From: a virus
Lineage: Duplodnaviria; Caudoviricetes
DNA: 64,000 nucleotides
Virus record (IMG/VR): IMGVR_UViG_3300048854_000074
Location: 6,118 to 70,117 of that record
Direction: 5' to 3' (one strand)
The notes beneath the pieces were generated by a model. The model did not search any database and had not been told where the DNA came from. It worked only from the letters and a program-made list of their open reading frames with translations. Position 1 is the stretch's first letter. Every line of letters starts with the position of its first letter. The translations under genes and the position numbers were made by a program. Positions 6,051 to 49,111 of the stretch are shown in pieces.

Positions 6051-6236
6051 TTACGATGGCACTGGAAGTCCTACCTGAAGCTGGGGCGGCACTGAATCGT
6101 AATATGCCTTCCAGCGCAAATCACTCGAGGAAAGCTGCCCTTGATTCGGATACAGCGCACTATTCGCTGGCGAGAAGAAGTATGAGATGACTGCGGATTC
6201 CGTTGCATCCGAGAACTGTACGTTGATCGTCGCCAT
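6051..6236 (-). CDS. Small tail-fibre-associated protein
   Basis: Directly follows the tail fibre gene; MATINVQFSDATESAVISYF. Confidence 0.6.
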   Translation of the reverse strand: MATINVQFSDATESAVISYFFSPANSALYPNQGQLSSSDLRWKAYYDSVPPQLQVGLPVPS

Positions 6237-7232
6237 TTAGATGGTATAGCCGCAAAGATTGATCGAAAAAGCCGGTGTTCCGCTAGCTGTGGTGAATATC
6301 CAGTAAATGGTCTGGGGCGTCACGATCGGCAACTCGCCTGAAGCAGACGAATAGCCCGCATTGGTTCCGTTGGAAGTCACGAAAACCGAGCCTGAGGTCG
6401 CCGCCAACTGTGTCAGTGTGGCGGCCGACGAAATTGAAGTTGTGCCGTACGCGGTGAATAGTCCAGTCCTTGCATTTAGGGGGATCGCCGTACTGGTAAG
6501 CGCCGTCAACGACGATGCGGTCGAAGCCGTCGACAGAATCAGATTGTTCGCAAAAGAGATCCGTCGATCGTTCTGGAACCCGATGATAAACAGCGAACTG
6601 GAATTCGTCGGCCACACGCTTACCAATGCGCTTGCCGTGTAGCCAGCTGGCATGTTGACGCCGCCATATACGCTAGGCGCCTTTGCGCTTGTTGCATTCG
6701 TCGCCAGCAGCGCGGCAGTGGCCGTCGTCGGATTGTAGATCGCGTATAGGGCAACGAAGCCGGATGCCGGGGCGCTGCCGCTGTCCATGCCGCCTGCGCC
6801 GGTTGTGGCGAGGTTAATGGTTTTGCTGAAGGTGGCGAGCGTGTATTTGAGCCCGCCTAGCGCTGAGCCGACAATTATCTCGTCGGCGGTGAGCGTTGCT
6901 GTGGCGCTGGCCGCACTAACGCTCATCGACAGATTGCGAACTGCACCGATTAGTGCTTCTGATTGCGCGCTTACTGCCGCGACAAGATTGGCCAGCAACG
7001 TAGCGGTCGTACCATCATCGATAGCGGTCTGCCCGGTGGTGTTGACGATGAACTGCGCCAGCACCGCAGCCATAATGCTTGACTGACGCCACGTCTTATT
7101 GAGTGCAGCGGATTGTGCAATTCCAGCCTGATAGCCAGTGGAGATTGCCGATAATGCGGCGTAGCTGCTCTGCGACAGAACGTTCGCGCCAGAGCCAGTC
7201 GCGAAGGGCAAGAAATCGTTTTCGACGGCCAT
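6237..7232 (-). CDS. Tail fibre protein
   Basis: N-terminus NDFLPFATGSGANVLSQ typical of myovirus fibre anchors; follows the baseplate genes. Confidence 0.85.
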   Translation of the reverse strand: MAVENDFLPFATGSGANVLSQSSYAALSAISTGYQAGIAQSAALNKTWRQSSIMAAVLAQFIVNTTGQTAIDDGTTATLLANLVAAVSAQSEALIGAVRNLSMSVSAASATATLTADEIIVGSALGGLKYTLATFSKTINLATTGAGGMDSGSAPASGFVALYAIYNPTTATAALLATNATSAKAPSVYGGVNMPAGYTASALVSVWPTNSSSLFIIGFQNDRRISFANNLILSTASTASSLTALTSTAIPLNARTGLFTAYGTTSISSAATLTQLAATSGSVFVTSNGTNAGYSSASGELPIVTPQTIYWIFTTASGTPAFSINLCGYTI

Positions 7233-41620: not shown

Positions 41621-41689
41621 ATTATCTATTACCCGCACGGTAGATACAAGAAGTATTTCTACCTTGTCGGACAATTTACCCAAAGGGTA
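41621..41689. promoter_or_regulatory. OR: pR and three 13-bp operators
   Basis: pR TTGTAT-17-GATAAT on -; operators 41630-41642, 41660-41672, 41677-41689 (TACC-N5-GGTA/GGAC). Confidence 0.85.
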
Positions 41690-41709
41690 AGAAGTGGCCT
41701 AATGTTGCT

Positions 41710-42477
41710 ATGAAATCAATCGATGACGTCCGCAGGGGAAATCTGAAAAAAGCCATTGACGATCTGTTTGGCGGGAGCCAAACGGCCGCTGCTGTTCGGA
41801 TGGGAAGGGACAAGCCCACCCAAATCAATCATTGGCTCGGTGGCGTCAAAAATATGAGCAAGGACAGCGCGCGCCTCATAGAAGAAAAGTTTGGGCTCCC
41901 CGCATTCTGGATGGACGCAGAGCACAACTTTGATAACCCCGATGCCTCAATCAGTGCACCAAATATTGGCGTGATTGTGAAATCGAATGCGGCTGACATA
42001 AGTAATCTGGATGCAGGAGACCTACCAAATCCAACATCCGAAGAGTTTGCTTTCGTGCCCCAATTAGATATCGCTGCGGCCTGCGGCAATGGCCGGTTTG
42101 AGGATCATGTCGTGGTTAAAGGCGGCCTCGCGTTCAAGAAGTCTTTTTTGCGCGAGAAAGGCGTCCCCGAACATGCCGCCCGGGTCATCTATGCGTCCGG
42201 TGGCAGCATGTCTCCGACGTTGCAGGACGGCTGCGTGGTTCTTCTAAACCTCGCAGACACCGAGCCTCGCGACGGGAAGGTCTATGCTATTTGCAAGCCA
42301 GACGACGGACTCGTCCTCAAGAGGCTGATTTGGGACTTTCACCCCTCGATGGGGCGTCAGACGTGGATTCTGCGCAGCGACAACCCCGATAAGATCGGGC
42401 ACCCGGATAAGGTCTTGCCTCCAGATGACCGGACGATGATCGCTGGCCGAGCCGTCTGGAACGACAACCAACTGTAG
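41710..42477 (+). CDS. cI: CI-like repressor (HTH plus S24 peptidase)
   Basis: HTH; ACG cleavage site; GGSMSPTL Ser and LVLKRL Lys. Confidence 0.93.
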   Translation: MKSIDDVRRGNLKKAIDDLFGGSQTAAAVRMGRDKPTQINHWLGGVKNMSKDSARLIEEKFGLPAFWMDAEHNFDNPDASISAPNIGVIVKSNAADISNLDAGDLPNPTSEEFAFVPQLDIAAACGNGRFEDHVVVKGGLAFKKSFLREKGVPEHAARVIYASGGSMSPTLQDGCVVLLNLADTEPRDGKVYAICKPDDGLVLKRLIWDFHPSMGRQTWILRSDNPDKIGHPDKVLPPDDRTMIAGRAVWNDNQL

Positions 42478-43038: not shown

Positions 43039-43224
43039 TCGCCGGCCGCACCCTCTGGACAGATAGCTTGTCTTAGTCCATAGGTGGACTTAAGGTGATT
43101 TCTGCGTTGCAGATAGTTTTGAGCCGAATTTCCTACCGGAACCGGGGTTTGCTGGATGGGATTTGGGAAGATAACGGTAACCGGGAGCGTACGCTGGGCA
43201 AGATCAACAAGGAGCCGTATACAG

Positions 43225-43983
43225 GTGCAGATGCTATTCGTTGATGAGTCAGGTACACCGCCACCTCTGGATCGAGTTCGCGATACGCCATTTTTCGTGC
43301 TTGGTGGCGTCTCTATCCCGGAAGAGGTCTGGGGCAAGCTGGCAGCGGACCTTGTGCGGATCAAAAAGAATTTCAACGTCGAGTGCGAGATCAAATGGCG
43401 GTACTTCGCGCCGGTGCGAGATCGGGCTAAGCCGCACGGGCTCTCACATTTGTCACCCACCGATAAAGAAAGCCTTCGCACCCAGTTGTATCAAGCATTG
43501 ATCAGCTATCGGGCTATTCGGCTCATATGCGTTGTGACGAACGTCGAGTTGGCATACAAGCTTGACTACATAAACAATCCCGATGACCTCTACTGGTATT
43601 CGTACAAGCAGCTAACTGAACGCTTCCAGTACTACCTGCAAGATTTGGAGCGGACCGTGGGCACTAAAACTCACGGAATAATCGTCTGCGATCACAGGGG
43701 CCCGAAAGACGACGAAAGGCTCCGTGAGCTACACCATAAACTGATGAACGCGCCAAAGTCGGTGACGTCGACTTACCTAAACTTGATCGAAGGCCTGTTT
43801 ATTGCCCCGTCTCATCTTAGTGTAGGAATCCAATTTGCCGACTTGGTGGCCGGAGCCGTTTTCCGAGTGAAAAAGGCCAAAGACTTACGATTCTACAAGC
43901 AGATTGAGCAGAGCTTCCGGCGCTCGCCGGACGGACGTATCGAGGGATATGGGGTCGTCAAATTCCCGAAGGGAACTTGGTAA
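43225..43983 (+). CDS. DUF3800-family protein (RNase H-like fold)
   Basis: LFVDESG start, FVLGG, IVCD, SVGIQFADLVAG end; RBS AAGGAG. Confidence 0.88.
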   Translation: MQMLFVDESGTPPPLDRVRDTPFFVLGGVSIPEEVWGKLAADLVRIKKNFNVECEIKWRYFAPVRDRAKPHGLSHLSPTDKESLRTQLYQALISYRAIRLICVVTNVELAYKLDYINNPDDLYWYSYKQLTERFQYYLQDLERTVGTKTHGIIVCDHRGPKDDERLRELHHKLMNAPKSVTSTYLNLIEGLFIAPSHLSVGIQFADLVAGAVFRVKKAKDLRFYKQIEQSFRRSPDGRIEGYGVVKFPKGTW

Positions 43984-43990
43984 GGAAGGA

Positions 43991-44077
43991 GGCGCCGTGT
44001 CGATGGTGACCCATCAATCCTGCTAGTATCGGCGCAGTCACGGCGTACCGCTAGGATAGCCTAATAAGCTTTTATTA
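43991..44077 (+). ncRNA. Putative DUF3800-associated structured RNA
   Basis: GCGCCG/CGGCGC stem enclosing the GATGG-TGAC-CCATC hairpin whose loop matches downstream GTCA. Confidence 0.55.
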
Positions 44078-44213
44078 TCAATGTAATACTGGCCGGTGCT
44101 CTAGAAAGAGCGAAGGCCCCCGATAGCAACACCGGAAGCCCTCGCCGGCCGAGAATCCCCAGCCCTTGATCGCATTCTAGGTTCCTGCGAATTGTTAGGC
44201 AAGGTTTGAGGCC

Positions 44214-44232
44214 GCCCAGTGCCGGGCTTTTT
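44214..44232 (+). terminator. Intrinsic terminator ending the cI-side transcript
   Basis: GCCC-AGTGCC-GGGC-TTTTT. Confidence 0.6.
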
Positions 44233-44432
44233 CATATCGGCCTCTGCGCAAACCCCTCCCGCCACAGCGTGGCACCGACCGACGTCAATAGCGCCAGGTC
44301 GTCTCCCTCGAATCGATCCCAGTTATCCGACAGCCAGCCCGCGAAGCCCGCTACAGCCTCGTCTATCGGTATGTCTGCACGTCCCTCGACGTTCAGGCGA
44401 TCGAAGATGGTGATTACGTCGAAAGCGTTCAT
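44232..44432 (-). CDS. Small acidic hypothetical protein
   Basis: Strong RBS GGAGGAG; 66 aa. Confidence 0.7.
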   Translation of the reverse strand: MNAFDVITIFDRLNVEGRADIPIDEAVAGFAGWLSDNWDRFEGDDLALLTSVGATLWREGFAQRPI

Positions 44433-44500
44433 TTTCTCCTCCCTTGACTAAGCCTAGGGCAAGTAACTGAGATTGCGTCAATACGTGTTCCTATCATTAC

Positions 44501-44575
44501 TATCCGCGCGGTAGAAAAATCCAATCGCTTCTATTACCCTGTGGGACTTGCAAATATCTACCCGGAGGGTAATAT
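44501..44575 (+). promoter_or_regulatory. OL: pL and three 13-bp operators
   Basis: TTGCAA-16-TAATAT; operators 44501-44513, 44535-44547, 44559-44571. Confidence 0.85.
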
Positions 44576-44966: not shown

Positions 44967-45140
44967 ATGAGCGAATGGATAGTCCATATCTACGCCGGCC
45001 AGTACCACACTAACCCGACGTGGCGTTTTGCAGTTAATGCAGAAAGCAAGGCAATGGCGATCACTGCTGGACTCTGGTTGTTCCGTCAGTCGGCGGAGTA
45101 CACAGAAGAGTTCGACCGAGTGGACGCTGACAAGATTTAA
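44967..45140 (+). CDS. Small hypothetical protein (57 aa)
   Basis: RBS AAGGAAG; MSEWIVHIYAG. Confidence 0.6.
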   Translation: MSEWIVHIYAGQYHTNPTWRFAVNAESKAMAITAGLWLFRQSAEYTEEFDRVDADKI

Positions 45141-46310
45141 CTGTTCGTAGCGAGAAGCGCCAGATCGCTTCTCAGTGCGAATAGCACCGCAGTAACCGCC
45201 CCGACATTGCGATCGGGAACTGGCGGGATGAACTTTAACAACGTGGATTTGAGTGTTTTCAGTGCTGGCGGTTTGCGGCGTGGAGAGTAGACACGCGACG
45301 CGGGCAGGGAGCAGGCCTGCAACCCTAGCGCAATGAACCGGCGCCTTTTGATTAACAACCCGGGTATTCGGCGCCGCGCAAAGAAGTAGGGGTTACAAGA
45401 GCTAAAACTGGTAGCCGGAGTCACGACCGGCCAAGCCGCCAGCCCTGATGACATTCAAACCACATCATAAGAGATACCCGTAAGGGAGCGCTCAACGTCC
45501 TACCGCTGAAAAGATCGGGACCTATCTCTCAAGTGCCTGGTGCCCAGATGGCGCTAAAGAACACTTGAGGGATTGATAACCGCCGCACCTGAGCCGAAGC
45601 CAGCATAGCTGGGAGTAGTCGGAGTGGTGCGGCATGCAGTTTTCTAGCTTGGCGATTGTGTCCGTTGGTGGTACCGGTCGCTCCGGGAAGTGGTTCGACT
45701 CCACAAGTGCAGGGCTATGCAAAGAGGTTCGACTCCTCAGCACAGTCGCCACGCTAGAACATTGCAGCACTGAGGCGAACGCATTGCGCTCCCTGCCAAA
45801 GTAGTCCGGCGTAAGGCCGGTCGGCCCGGGCCACAACCCGGGGACGCCGTTCGAAAGGGCGCCGTTTAAAGGGACCGGAAACACCAGTAGGAAACTCCCT
45901 GGCAAAGCGTAGTGCGTTCTCTTGAGTGCTGAACGGCTCCAAACAGCAAGACAATCCCGGAGGTTGCCATGAAGAAGTGACCGATTCACTAACCCAAGGT
46001 TGACTACTCGCCCGTGAAAGCGAAACGACATTCGCATGGGATCAGACTTGCCCGATGGTTAGCGGAGTGCCCACCCGCTGATAACCAGATGACGGCGCCA
46101 AAGACACATGAGGTCGCAGCACACTGCCGGGCCTGACGATCCGGGTGAAGCCTACCAAAGCAGGCCGAGTGGTCCACGTCACGGACCGTTTTGATGGAAT
46201 CGGAATGCGCAGGCTGATGCGCGCTGAAGTGCACAGGTGGTGCGGGCGGCGATGTAGTCGTAACCGTTCCAAGCCGGAGATCAGCGCCGGCCCCTTCCCC
46301 TAAACACGTT
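45141..46310 (+). ncRNA. Large multi-domain structured RNA region in the PL transcript
   Basis: At least eight adjacent helix-closed domains, GNRA-type loops, two GGTTCGACTCC T-arms, kissing loop; no credible + strand ORF. Confidence 0.7.
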
Positions 46311-46406
46311 TCGAGTCCCCTTGCAGTTACCGACTCCCCGAGCCGATAGCAACAAGGCGATTCAAGAGCTTTACACATTGCCATTAGGACAACTACGGAG
46401 TAGGAA

Positions 46407-46685
46407 ATGGACATCAAAGGCATCAGCAAGGCAAAGATCCTCGCAGCGCTTTACAACGCAAGTCGTCCGCAGGGGATGGGATTTCTGCAGGCGAAGAACG
46501 GCGACATGACCGAGCAGGAAGCGCAGAAGCTTCTCGACGCGGGGCAGACCTACTTCGACTACCTGCATGGCCGGGTGATGAAGATCGACCTGAGCGGCAA
46601 CGAACTGCGAACCGCGCTGTATGACCGCGACAACGGGCAGGGCGCAGCAGAGGATGCGATCACGCGGGCTCTCTGCGCCGCCTAA
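46407..46685 (+). CDS. Conserved-looking phage protein
   Basis: YFDYLHGRVMKIDL...LYDRDNG; RBS. Confidence 0.75.
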   Translation: MDIKGISKAKILAALYNASRPQGMGFLQAKNGDMTEQEAQKLLDAGQTYFDYLHGRVMKIDLSGNELRTALYDRDNGQGAAEDAITRALCAA

Positions 46686-47096: not shown

Positions 47097-47206
47097 TATG
47101 ACCGAAAAGAGTGTGACTTTAAAAACTGGCTCTGCGGAATAACGTGTGTAATTCATGATTCTCCACTATAATTAAAATTCGGAATAACGTGTGGAAAGGA
47201 GGGGTC

Positions 47207-47662
47207 ATGAAGATTCAAGATGGGCATAAGCTGGTACCGGTTGAGCCGGTGGCGTGGCAATACCGAACGAAGATGGGCGAGTGGGATGTCGTCGATAAAC
47301 GACAAGTCGATTGGCACGTCTCGAGAGGTTTCGAAATTCGGCCGCTCTACGCCGCCCAGACCGCCCAATCGGGTGAAGCAGAATTTCATGAGGCGGTTGT
47401 CAAGCTTGTTTGCGACATGCTTAATGCATGGATGCAAGGCATCTCGTACATCGAAGTGCCATCGGGACTGCAATGTCGCGTTGAGGCGCTGCTTACTTCG
47501 CCGAAGCCGGCACAGACGAGACGAGAGCTGGCGGATGAAACTCTCGGCCGACAGTTTCGCGATTACTTCGGACATATCACGCCGGAGGAAGCGTGCAGAA
47601 CAATTAACGAATTGCAGGCCAAATTGACCGCCGCGCAGTCCGCAAGCGGAGCGTGCGAGTAA
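47207..47662 (+). CDS. IS passenger gene resembling phage Ead/Ea22-type modules
   Basis: RBS GGAGG; KLVPVEPVAW...PLYAA motif. Confidence 0.7.
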   Translation: MKIQDGHKLVPVEPVAWQYRTKMGEWDVVDKRQVDWHVSRGFEIRPLYAAQTAQSGEAEFHEAVVKLVCDMLNAWMQGISYIEVPSGLQCRVEALLTSPKPAQTRRELADETLGRQFRDYFGHITPEEACRTINELQAKLTAAQSASGACE

Positions 47663-49111
47663 GTGACCGACATTCTCGACCTTCCCGGCTGGGTACCGAC
47701 TGGCACGCGCACGCAGGACGACCAATACATAATCTCGGCTGACTACACAGTTTTTCCTGAGGCGTGCCAAAAATGCGGCGTAATTGGCCGAGTTTATAAG
47801 CACGGCCCCAAAATGATCATTTTTCGAGATAGCCCTATTCGGGGCCGTCCGGTGAGCATCGAGGCCAACGCCCAGCGCTTCAGATGCAGGGAATGCGGGG
47901 GCACGTTTATCCAGCCCTTGGGTGGCATTCATCCAGCCTCGCGCATGACGGCTCGTTGCGTCCAGTACATCGAGGAGCAGTGCCTGCGCGACACCTTCAC
48001 TCGCATCGCTGAGCACGTTGGCTGCGACGACAAGACCGTCCGAACCCTGGCCGGCGACTACATCAACCGCGTGAATGCGGAGTACAAGCCCTGGATGCCA
48101 GAGTGGCTGGGCATCGATGAGACGCAGATTGACGGCAAGCTCCGTTGCATCATCACCGACGTTGTCAACCGCGTCCCCATCGACATGCTGCCAGACCGCG
48201 ACAAGCCGCTGGTGACGGCTTGGCTGCATCAGTTCAAGGAACGCGGCGGCGTCAAGGGCCTCGCCATCGACATGTGGCGCCCATACAAGGATGCGGCGCA
48301 GTCTGTCTTCCCTGGTCTGCCGGTCGTTATCGACAAGTTCCATTTGGTCAGAATGGCGAACCGCGCCATGGACGACATCCGCATCACGCTGGCCAAGGAC
48401 CAAGAGAAGGCCGTGGGTCGGGACTGGATGCGGCGCAAGGCGCTGCTCCGGATGCGATACAAGAACCTCGACGAACAGGGTCGCTTCAACCTCCAGATGT
48501 GGCTGGACAACGAGCCGTACGTGGCGAACGCCTACCGGCTGAAGGAAGCGTTCTACGACATCTATGACGCGCCGTCCAAGGCTGAAGCCGCAGAGCGACT
48601 GGACGAATGGCGCAAGTCTGTGCCGGCCGCCATGAAGAAGGGCAAGAAGAGCTTCCAGCCGTTGCTCACGTCCACCCGGAACTGGCGAGAGGAAATGCTC
48701 GCCTACTTTGACCACCCGATTTCGAACGGCTACACGGAAGCCCTGAACGGCGTCGCGAAAGTCATCAACCGCGCTGGTCGCGGCTACAGCTTCGAGGTAC
48801 TGCGCGCCCGGCTGCTGTACGGGAAGCTGCACAAGAAGGAACCAGTGGAGGGCCACATGAAGAAACGAACTGCTGACCAGGTCGAAAGGCAAGTCGCGCT
48901 CGTTGAGGCGCTTGGCAGTCGATGCGGCTCGTGCAATGGCGTGTTCGACCCTGACGAGTTGGAGGCACACACACTGCCGCCCATCACAAAGGATGAGATT
49001 CGCCGGGAAGCAAGCCGTCGCGCCTACCCGAAACGGGTGTATGTCTGCTCGACCTGTTATCGACGATTCCACACGGAGAGAGCTGGTCATGGCTCACAGA
49101 CTTCCACATGA
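47663..49111 (+). CDS. ISL3 transposase with C-terminal CxxC..CxxC extension
   Basis: N-terminal Zn finger CQKC/CREC, LGIDE, IDMW, IDKFH, NGYTEALNG. Confidence 0.95.
   Translation: MTDILDLPGWVPTGTRTQDDQYIISADYTVFPEACQKCGVIGRVYKHGPKMIIFRDSPIRGRPVSIEANAQRFRCRECGGTFIQPLGGIHPASRMTARCVQYIEEQCLRDTFTRIAEHVGCDDKTVRTLAGDYINRVNAEYKPWMPEWLGIDETQIDGKLRCIITDVVNRVPIDMLPDRDKPLVTAWLHQFKERGGVKGLAIDMWRPYKDAAQSVFPGLPVVIDKFHLVRMANRAMDDIRITLAKDQEKAVGRDWMRRKALLRMRYKNLDEQGRFNLQMWLDNEPYVANAYRLKEAFYDIYDAPSKAEAAERLDEWRKSVPAAMKKGKKSFQPLLTSTRNWREEMLAYFDHPISNGYTEALNGVAKVINRAGRGYSFEVLRARLLYGKLHKKEPVEGHMKKRTADQVERQVALVEALGSRCGSCNGVFDPDELEAHTLPPITKDEIRREASRRAYPKRVYVCSTCYRRFHTERAGHGSQTST

Follow-up and report, generated by a model that had tools for sequence, protein, structure and literature searches.

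The CI RNA of P4 and the c4 RNA of P1/P7 are small stable phage RNAs which are cut by RNase P from the early leader, carry tRNA-like features and act by loop-based RNA-RNA pairing. Tandem co-transcribed tRNA-shaped units that can be recognized by host tRNA enzymes are exemplified by the stable RNAs C and D of T4, the TMERs of gammaherpesviruses and mascRNA, while the HK022 put element, with two stem-loops in ~70 nucleotides (nt), acts on RNA polymerase. At the other end of the size range, GOLLD and ROOL are phage-borne, highly structured non-coding RNAs often located next to tRNAs (Weinberg 2017), each with one conserved architecture of ~600-800 nt. Orphan structured RNAs of proteobacterial phages also include Proteo-phage-1 (RF03044) and eleven DUF3800-associated motifs, DUF3800-I to -XI (Weinberg et al. 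2017). Furthermore, sRNA-17, encoded by an mEp460-like prophage of E. coli K1 RS218, was defined as a 193-nt small RNA (sRNA) by rapid amplification of cDNA ends (RACE) and Northern blot and was reported without an Rfam homologue (Front Microbiol 2020, PMC7719688). Here, we analyze a 1266-nt gap between genes (45141-46406, + strand) in a 64,000-nt stretch of a Caudoviricetes virus (IMG/VR record IMGVR_UViG_3300048854_000074, positions 6,118 to 70,117), hereafter the window, which holds structured RNA modules comparable in part with these elements.

We consider it reasonably probable that this gap is an untranslated spacer of the early operon made of about nine exchangeable and autonomous RNA modules, which would be co-transcribed, processed and docked on a host component. 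The structural and modular part of this reading, taken by itself, is very likely correct, and the gap is confirmed as a genuinely folded non-coding sequence of RNA type on the + strand. The gap was folded with a span limit of 260 nt and then divided at helix-closed domains, the same procedure being applied to controls. On the + strand, six of the nine gap domains, covering 726 nt, have a z-score (z) below -3.5, namely 45141-45184 (-6.5), 45243-45463 (-4.3), 45464-45577 (-3.7), 45582-45633 (-5.0), 45636-45765 (-4.6), and 45766-45930 (-5.4). This compares with zero to two such domains (0-324 nt) in six coding stretches of equal length and with two on the minus strand of the gap. Taken as single domains, 45141-45184, 45243-45463, 45526-45572, 45582-45633, 45635-45766, and 45765-45931 reach a z of -4 to -6, more negative on the + than on the minus strand in all cases except one. 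Arbitrary 150-nt windows slid over the gap give z-scores without enrichment, because they cut the long-range stems and so miss the signal. No conserved open reading frame (ORF) was found in the gap; the three minus-strand ORFs that span it, of 105, 171, and 141 amino acids (aa), have no Pfam match, and their frames are disrupted in homologues by indels of 1, 2, 4, and 20 nt.

The original prediction, made from the DNA letters, had described the gap as filled with back-to-back helix-closed domains on the + strand. Refolding reproduces its boundaries, and its preference for + strand RNA over DNA palindromes or coding sequence is upheld by the stronger + strand folding, the G-U pairs in covarying stems and the broken frames. 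The folding energies, which it had proposed as a check, lie beyond the coding controls domain by domain, but not in the fixed 150-nt windows. Its list of domains stands for the six with z below -3.5 and is thermodynamically weaker elsewhere, since the hairpin 45196-45226 has a z of about -1 and the domains at about 46036-46142 and 46196-46300, delimited here as modules 46000-46142 and 46189-46306, are ordinary in this respect (z about 0). Despite this, 46189-46306 displays the strongest covariation of all modules.

All on the + strand, the modules are M1 (45141-45184), M2 (45243-45463, core 45263-45444), M3 (45465-45572), M4 (45582-45633), B (45635-45766), M6 (45765-45931), A (46016-46106), C (46189-46306), and M9 (46307-46406). 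BLAST against public phages and related loci (given L-numbers such as L003 or L127, and obtained via flanking genes and motif patterns) revealed that pieces of the gap recur separately and reordered. The order of A and C is reversed in Acidovorax phage AP1, where A lies downstream of the C homologue, and in L033; M3 precedes the M2 homologue in L129; M6 and M9 recur in L127 beside a tRNA-like gene, and M1 and M2 in L225; in L187, the outer stems of M2 are kept around a different insert. For A, M3, and M6, recurrences are seen in a few phages of Burkholderiales or Pseudomonas. Compensatory changes are seen in M2, M3, and M6 in pairwise and four-way alignments, and no conserved pairing between modules was found. 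A single conserved architecture of 1.2 kb is thus unsupported, because the modules recur separately, in other orders and with other neighbors, in related as well as unrelated phages. The headline of the original prediction, one multi-domain RNA of ~1.2 kb, has to be abandoned in favor of the alternative it had offered, an array of smaller RNA units. The covariation that it had suggested to look for is present in window helices, including two that it had named (45259-45275/45432-45448 and 45777-45790/45906-45919), and is strong in the families of C and M2.

Judging from their predicted pairing, C and M2 are clamp RNAs with a cloverleaf layout. In such an RNA, the 5' and 3' ends would pair in a long and freely covarying stem, a near-invariant first hairpin would follow 2-3 nt after this closing stem, a variable insert (a T-arm or a whole tRNA in other phages) would take the position of the anticodon arm, and a near-invariant last hairpin would stack directly on the closing stem. 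The array therefore holds two different families with a common clamp design and an identical GCCGG/CCGGC last stem. The inserts are swappable between copies, and some hold T-arm-like hairpins.

The family of C is defined by the closing stem (P1), GAAU, the hairpin GCGCA-GGCUGA-UGCGC, a variable insert and the hairpin GCCGG-AGAUCAGCR-CCGGC, which abuts the 3' strand of P1. The window copy, scored at 85.4 bits (E about 1e-21) by the covariance model R1, follows this pattern with an imperfect P1 (46192-46203 with 46292-46306), GAAU, GCGCA-GGCUGA-UGCGC, an insert of 50 nt and GCCGG-AGAUCAGCG-CCGGC. The exact 20-mer GAATGCGCAGGCTGATGCGC of C occurs in at least 120 IMG/VR contigs, and in 96 non-redundant copies a variable strand stands 5' of the 20-mer, while on its 3' side an insert 26-162 nt long leads to GCCGGAGATCAGCRCCGGCC and to a strand complementary to the variable one; R1 finds 110 copies in the loci collected. 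Both sides change in eight of the nine P1 pairs and in all five pairs of the last hairpin (P4), with 93% of cells paired; none of 500 shuffles was as high, and no slid register came close. G-U pairs are common in the covarying stems of both clamp families and consistent with the + strand. The invariant loops GCUGA and UCAGC, both present in the window copy, are mutually complementary, and a divergent copy (L075:7666-7783) has the compensatory loops GGUGA/UCACC, other family variants being G-U compatible. The two loops are predicted to kiss, and their pairing would resemble the tRNA elbow. Since they are invariant across phages, these loops cannot provide phage-specific immunity, a point of difference from C4.

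Carriers of C include P1-like phages, Stx2 and mEp460-type lambdoid phages, where it lies directly after cI, and 856 of 5426 complete E. coli genomes. The exact 20-mer was found in just one of 401 sampled genomes of the class, which argues for a phage-restricted RNA rather than a chromosomal housekeeping one. In the P1-like Escherichia phage JL22 (L124:2514-3339), three tandem + strand copies stand just after tRNA-Asn and tRNA-Thr and overlap coding sequences (CDSs) annotated on the opposite strand as a 'plp lipoprotein' and a hypothetical protein; because of this overlap, both annotations are suspect and probably spurious. At L042:3205-3282, a Proteo-phage-1 RNA detected by Rfam immediately precedes a C copy of the same orientation, which marks Proteo-phage-1 as another cassette of such arrays.

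One member of this family has been published, as sRNA-17 is, from the mapping of its oligonucleotides, an RNA of the C type. The 'full length' primer starts with CGTTGTGGTGAATGCGCAGGCTGATGCGC, the second primer is complementary to the terminator-like hairpin that follows the C motif, and the Northern probe falls in the insert; indeed, the full-length, RACE, and Northern oligonucleotides map on the mEp460/Stx-type C copy, and R1 recovers both copies of this type. Module C has the architecture and the invariant hairpins of sRNA-17, with an unrelated insert, a weaker P1 and no terminator-like hairpin after it (none follows M2 either), and it belongs to a nine-module array of a Burkholderiales-type phage. 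The sRNA-17 paper deals with a single E. coli regulatory sRNA, the family, the cloverleaf, and the kissing loops being undescribed there (PMC7719688).

The second clamp family shows P1, GC, the hairpin GCGUG-GARAGYAGA-CACGC, a variable insert and the hairpin GCCGG-AGUAGCGN-CCGGC abutting the 3' strand of P1. M2 conforms to it, with a long closing stem, the hairpin GCGUG-GAGAGUAGA-CACGC, a multi-branched insert of 116 nt and the hairpin GCCGG-AGUCACGA-CCGGC against the 3' strand of the closing stem; its last loop, AGUCACGA, is divergent from the family, and model R2 scores it at 33.7 bits (E 1.6e-5). At least 119 IMG/VR contigs contain the hairpin GGCGTGGA-N-AG-N-AGACACGC. For 107 of 121 copies of the family, the sequence after this hairpin runs through an insert 43-269 nt long to AGCCGGAGTAGCGNCCGGCC and a strand complementary to the 5' flank, and R2 finds 85 copies in the loci collected. 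Both sides change in all nine P1 pairs, in all five P4 pairs and in 14 of 19 pairs overall, with 96% of cells paired and none of 500 shuffles as high. The window copy itself shows compensatory changes relative to L129, L225, and L187.

Module B (z -4.6 to -4.9) is tRNA-derived. A long closing helix encloses UUGGUGG, a small hairpin, a first T-arm (GUGG-UUCGACU-CCAC), the hairpin UGCA-GGGCUA-UGCA and a second T-arm (GAGG-UUCGACU-CCUC), and the T-loop UUCGACU is identical to that of the tRNA-Trp of the phage itself. Homologues are limited to Pseudomonas phage Marin (L003:3001-3082) and a near-identical metagenome contig, L145 being also named as a homologue; the stretch that recurs in Marin by BLAST is 45659-45736. 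Compensatory changes between both copies affect the second T-arm (GAGG/CCUC versus CCGG/CCGG) and the closing helix. Exact-pattern scans of IMG/VR for B and M3 returned nothing or the known relative only; for B, scans of genome contigs gave nothing, and those of metagenomes one Marin-like copy and two chance matches. B was rejected as a tRNA, with no ARAGORN call in the gap and a tRNA-Sec score of 19.8 bits in Rfam versus a gathering score of 47, and likewise a complete tRNA cloverleaf with an anticodon arm was rejected for the whole gap (no match to RF00005 or with ARAGORN). The modules thus share tandem tRNA-shaped units with phage tRNA clusters and viral tRNA-like units but have neither an anticodon arm nor an ARAGORN call, and their processing is presumed.

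Other arrays show further connections with tRNA. The variable arm of one C copy (L107:7008-7209) encloses a 79-nt tRNA called by ARAGORN (7100-7178, Ser-GCU), and a tRNA is present in the arrays of L127 and L143. We also observed an aberrant tRNA-like gene at L127:3460-3547, called 'tRNA-???' with a two-base anticodon by ARAGORN and scoring 44 bits with the Rfam tRNA model. At L125:2900-3000, in the pL leader after cI of Stx2a_1447, the T-arm-like hairpins CUGG-UUCAAUU-CCAG and GUCCG-UUCGAUU-CGGAC precede a C copy.

The remaining modules are more diverse. M1 is a long imperfect hairpin directly after the stop codon of a 57-aa ORF (z -6.0 to -6.5), kept in L129 and L225. M3 comprises a three-way junction (45471-45529) with a CCC-GUAA-GGG hairpin, followed by the hairpin 45526-45572 (z -4.1), and is 83% identical to L129:3535-3628 with nine compensatory pairs. 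M4, a stable GC-rich hairpin with an internal branch (z -4.2 to -5.0), has no homologue among the loci searched. M6 is a long irregular helix with GUAA- and GAAA-capped branches (z -5.4 to -6.0); its homologues in L127, L267, L268, and L270 reveal nine compensatory pairs and a 20-nt indel in one branch. Module A is conserved in sequence (GCAUGGGA..CCGAUGG..GGAGUGCCCACCC..CCAGAUGACGGCGCC) with a z of about 0 and modest covariation (four pairs). Copies of it exist in Acidovorax phage AP1 and L033 as well as in five Pandoraea genomes, there within arrays that also hold motif C and tRNAs. In a Pandoraea prophage, a type II hammerhead ribozyme (L141:3573-3636, Rfam, 42.8 bits) lies ~0.8 kb from A on the opposite strand. 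M9 forms the 3' spacer to the ribosome-binding site of a 92-aa gene, its part 46312-46363 being kept in L127 (z -2.2).

Searched with Rfam 15 at gathering score, the window and 34 related loci gave no match for either clamp family, and relaxing the threshold to E up to 10 on the gap gave chance-level hits only (tRNA-Sec at 19.8 bits, rydB, and snoRNAs). GOLLD (RF01998) and ROOL (RF03087) have no covariance-model match in the gap at either threshold, in line with the inability of the original prediction to recognize them by eye. C4 antisense RNA (RF01695) has no match in the window; this search is effective, as the same model recovers the true C4 in L125 and L126 (83.6 bits), and the C4 of Stx2a_1447 and mEp460 occupies another place in the locus, as an element of its own. 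What the modules have in common with P4 CI and P1/P7 c4 is that they would be small phage RNAs of the early leader with tRNA-like features and loop pairing. With HK022 put and lambda nutL, they share the position of a structured RNA behind the early-left promoter, and several carriers lack an annotated N-like gene; no resemblance of sequence or structure to put was found, so the promoter-proximal position is the only common point. The motifs of Weinberg et al. 2017 are comparable as orphan RNAs, and none of their models matches inside the gap. A Y RNA-like (YrlA) identity was rejected, with no TROVE domain in the phage record and no Rfam match. A catalogue of 10,006 candidate viral structured RNAs exists (PMC10690425) and could contain the C or M2 motifs.

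The source record is a 70-kb IMG/VR virus, and its large terminase shares 82% identity with the counterparts in Burkholderia phages Magia and Bups phi1, which points to a temperate phage of Burkholderiales type. The gap is flanked by the 57-aa ORF (44967-45140) and the 92-aa ORF (46407-46685), both on the + strand. A gene for a CI-like repressor (41710-42477, +) is followed by a 176-aa ORF and by the DUF3800 gene (43156-43983, +), which ends ~1.2 kb upstream of the gap. Between the immunity genes and the early operon (43984-44450), we noted a structured stretch that begins where DUF3800 stops, and a small antisense gene for a 66-aa ORF (44232-44432, minus strand) with a strong Shine-Dalgarno sequence and a terminator-like hairpin. 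Small early genes follow the gap on the + strand, with an ISL3-family transposase (DDE_Tnp_ISL3, 1e-55; 47153-49111) inserted in the early operon shortly 3' of the array. Two 20-bp operator-like sites, TAYYACC-N5-GGTARWTA, lie at 44498-44574, ~600 nt upstream of the RNA array, and two others at 41627-41692, just upstream of the cI-like gene; the 64 kb contain four such sites versus 0.29 expected, and none of 100 shuffles reaches four. These sites probably define the right and left operators (OR and OL) of the phage, and 44498-44574 supports a putative repressor-controlled promoter region resembling the early-left promoter (PL). The placement of the gap in an early (PL) operon, already advanced in the original prediction, is backed by the four sites, two of them ~600 nt upstream of it, and by the CI-like repressor gene. 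Within the gap itself, we saw no conspicuous consensus of a promoter or terminator. In tblastn with the flanking proteins, only cI homologues recur, and a search for related loci with the DUF3800 protein gave no match.

To place the clamp families in their genomic context, every ORF up to 3 kb away from 203 copies of C and M2 was clustered. Repressors with helix-turn-helix and peptidase-S24 domains are the commonest neighbors, encoded upstream in the orientation of the RNA; the two largest clusters alone give 36 instances. Cro/CII-type genes are found beyond them on the opposite strand. The downstream side holds early-left genes (DUF2303, RecT, HNH), or a lysozyme gene in a smaller set.

How would such an array work? 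It would be transcribed with the early operon from the upstream promoter, each module folding independently, and at least some of them would remain in the cell as separate stable small RNAs, probably set free by host enzymes that process tRNA. For a host factor conserved between Enterobacterales and Burkholderiales, the invariant hairpins may serve as docking sites, and no such constraint would act on the closing stem and the insert; among possible partners are the enzymes that process or modify tRNA, nucleases that target it, and RNA polymerase. That the modules are processed tRNA-like small RNAs acting through a conserved host factor is a tentative proposal, to which we give less than even odds. 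Several points weigh against it and against the broader reading of the gap. The idea of a host factor is drawn solely from the invariance of hairpins across very different phages, and no conserved phage-encoded partner protein emerged among the ORFs near the 203 copies. The usual location behind an early promoter is equally compatible with a leader acting in cis. In the window copy of C, P1 is imperfect and the folding energy is average, and M3, M4, B, and M6 are each supported by zero to four homologues. Finally, a tRNA lies within 400 nt of just ~10% of C copies, so that the connection with tRNA, although real, does not hold in general.

The chief alternative is a cis-acting leader, whose modules would work on the RNA that contains them and not as free small RNAs, providing put-like processive antitermination by RNA only, attenuators, or nuclease-resistant stabilizers and processing punctuation for the early operon; we regard it as rather unlikely. 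It would account for the preference of both clamp families for sites downstream of same-strand cI-type repressor genes and before early-left genes (or, for some, lysis genes), for the array standing 600 nt behind operator-like sites, and for the gap after cI in Stx2a_1447 and mEp460, which has no annotated gene of N size on that strand; moreover, replacing the sRNA-17 locus raised the expression of the downstream prophage genes yfdP and yfdR (PMC7719688). The same RNA, however, accumulates as a discrete species (PMC7719688), the three C copies of the P1-like phage sit beside tRNA genes away from the immunity region, and in the window two small + strand ORFs, ending at 45140, separate the promoter region from the array. 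Nor do terminators mark these units, a terminator-like hairpin following 30 of 93 C copies (32%) versus 17-21 in controls (18-23%), a weak enrichment, and 14% of M2 copies versus 17%, no enrichment. No insert or module shows perfect complementarity above chance elsewhere in the 64-kb window, which was searched for antisense targets.

A quite different view, that of one large ornate RNA of ~1.2 kb folded into a single particle like GOLLD or ROOL, draws on the contiguity of the helix-closed domains, with almost no spacer and all on one strand, and on the phage-borne nature and frequent tRNA neighborhood of both RNAs. We judge it very improbable in view of the absence of an Rfam match, the swapped order of M2/M3 in L129 and of A/C in AP1 and L033, and the occurrence of the C and M2 families, each alone, in hundreds of unrelated contigs; the gap units are independent and reshuffled, unlike the single architectures of GOLLD and ROOL. 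Equally far-fetched is the notion that the DUF3800 nuclease, whose gene lies 1.2 kb upstream, has its partner RNAs in these modules, in the manner of the eleven DUF3800-associated motifs (Weinberg et al. 2017). Marin, the sole other named phage with B, has a DUF3800 gene as well, with an Rfam DUF3800-VI RNA in front of it (L003:31-880), and with these two cases a link between B and DUF3800 is possible; yet DUF3800 is found in one of 49 array-carrying records, none of the DUF3800-I to -XI motifs matches in the gap, and operator-like sites and the small antisense gene stand between DUF3800 and the array. Least credible of all is that the gap holds decayed or unrecognized coding sequence, or that it functions as DNA, for instance as a recombination site or through palindromic repeats. 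The minus-strand ORFs spanning the gap would speak for it, but they lack Pfam matches, the indels are not multiples of three, the substitutions in stems are compensatory, and both the common G-U pairs in covarying stems and the stronger folding point to the + strand.

The reading of the gap as an early-operon spacer of exchangeable RNA modules, which we favor, brings to light two RNA families, each in at least 119 phage contigs, with textbook covariation and near-invariant loops and missing from Rfam, of which a single member, sRNA-17, had been published, as a virulence-related sRNA of E. coli. It would also correct annotation, as for the antisense 'plp lipoprotein' CDS lying across three C copies in P1-like phages, and the window offers a Burkholderiales example in which a nine-module array holds both clamp families. 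Their position is strategic, since in Enterobacterales, Pseudomonas, and Burkholderiales phages alike they would be part of the first transcript from the early promoter under repressor control, and their design is that of a scaffold with a payload, able to hold even a tRNA. It is conceivable, if on the unlikely side, that the clamp families are a general RNA chassis of phages, in which one conserved host machine, for example tRNA-processing or modifying enzymes, a defense nuclease that targets tRNA, or RNA polymerase, would recognize an invariant core resembling the tRNA elbow, and the variable arm would present a payload specific to the phage. On this view, an array in the early operon would supply many decoys or guides at once, in the first minutes of infection or induction. 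Identifying the binder of the invariant hairpins could expose a general mechanism of early infection, whether tRNA mimicry against defense nucleases or transcription control by RNA only.

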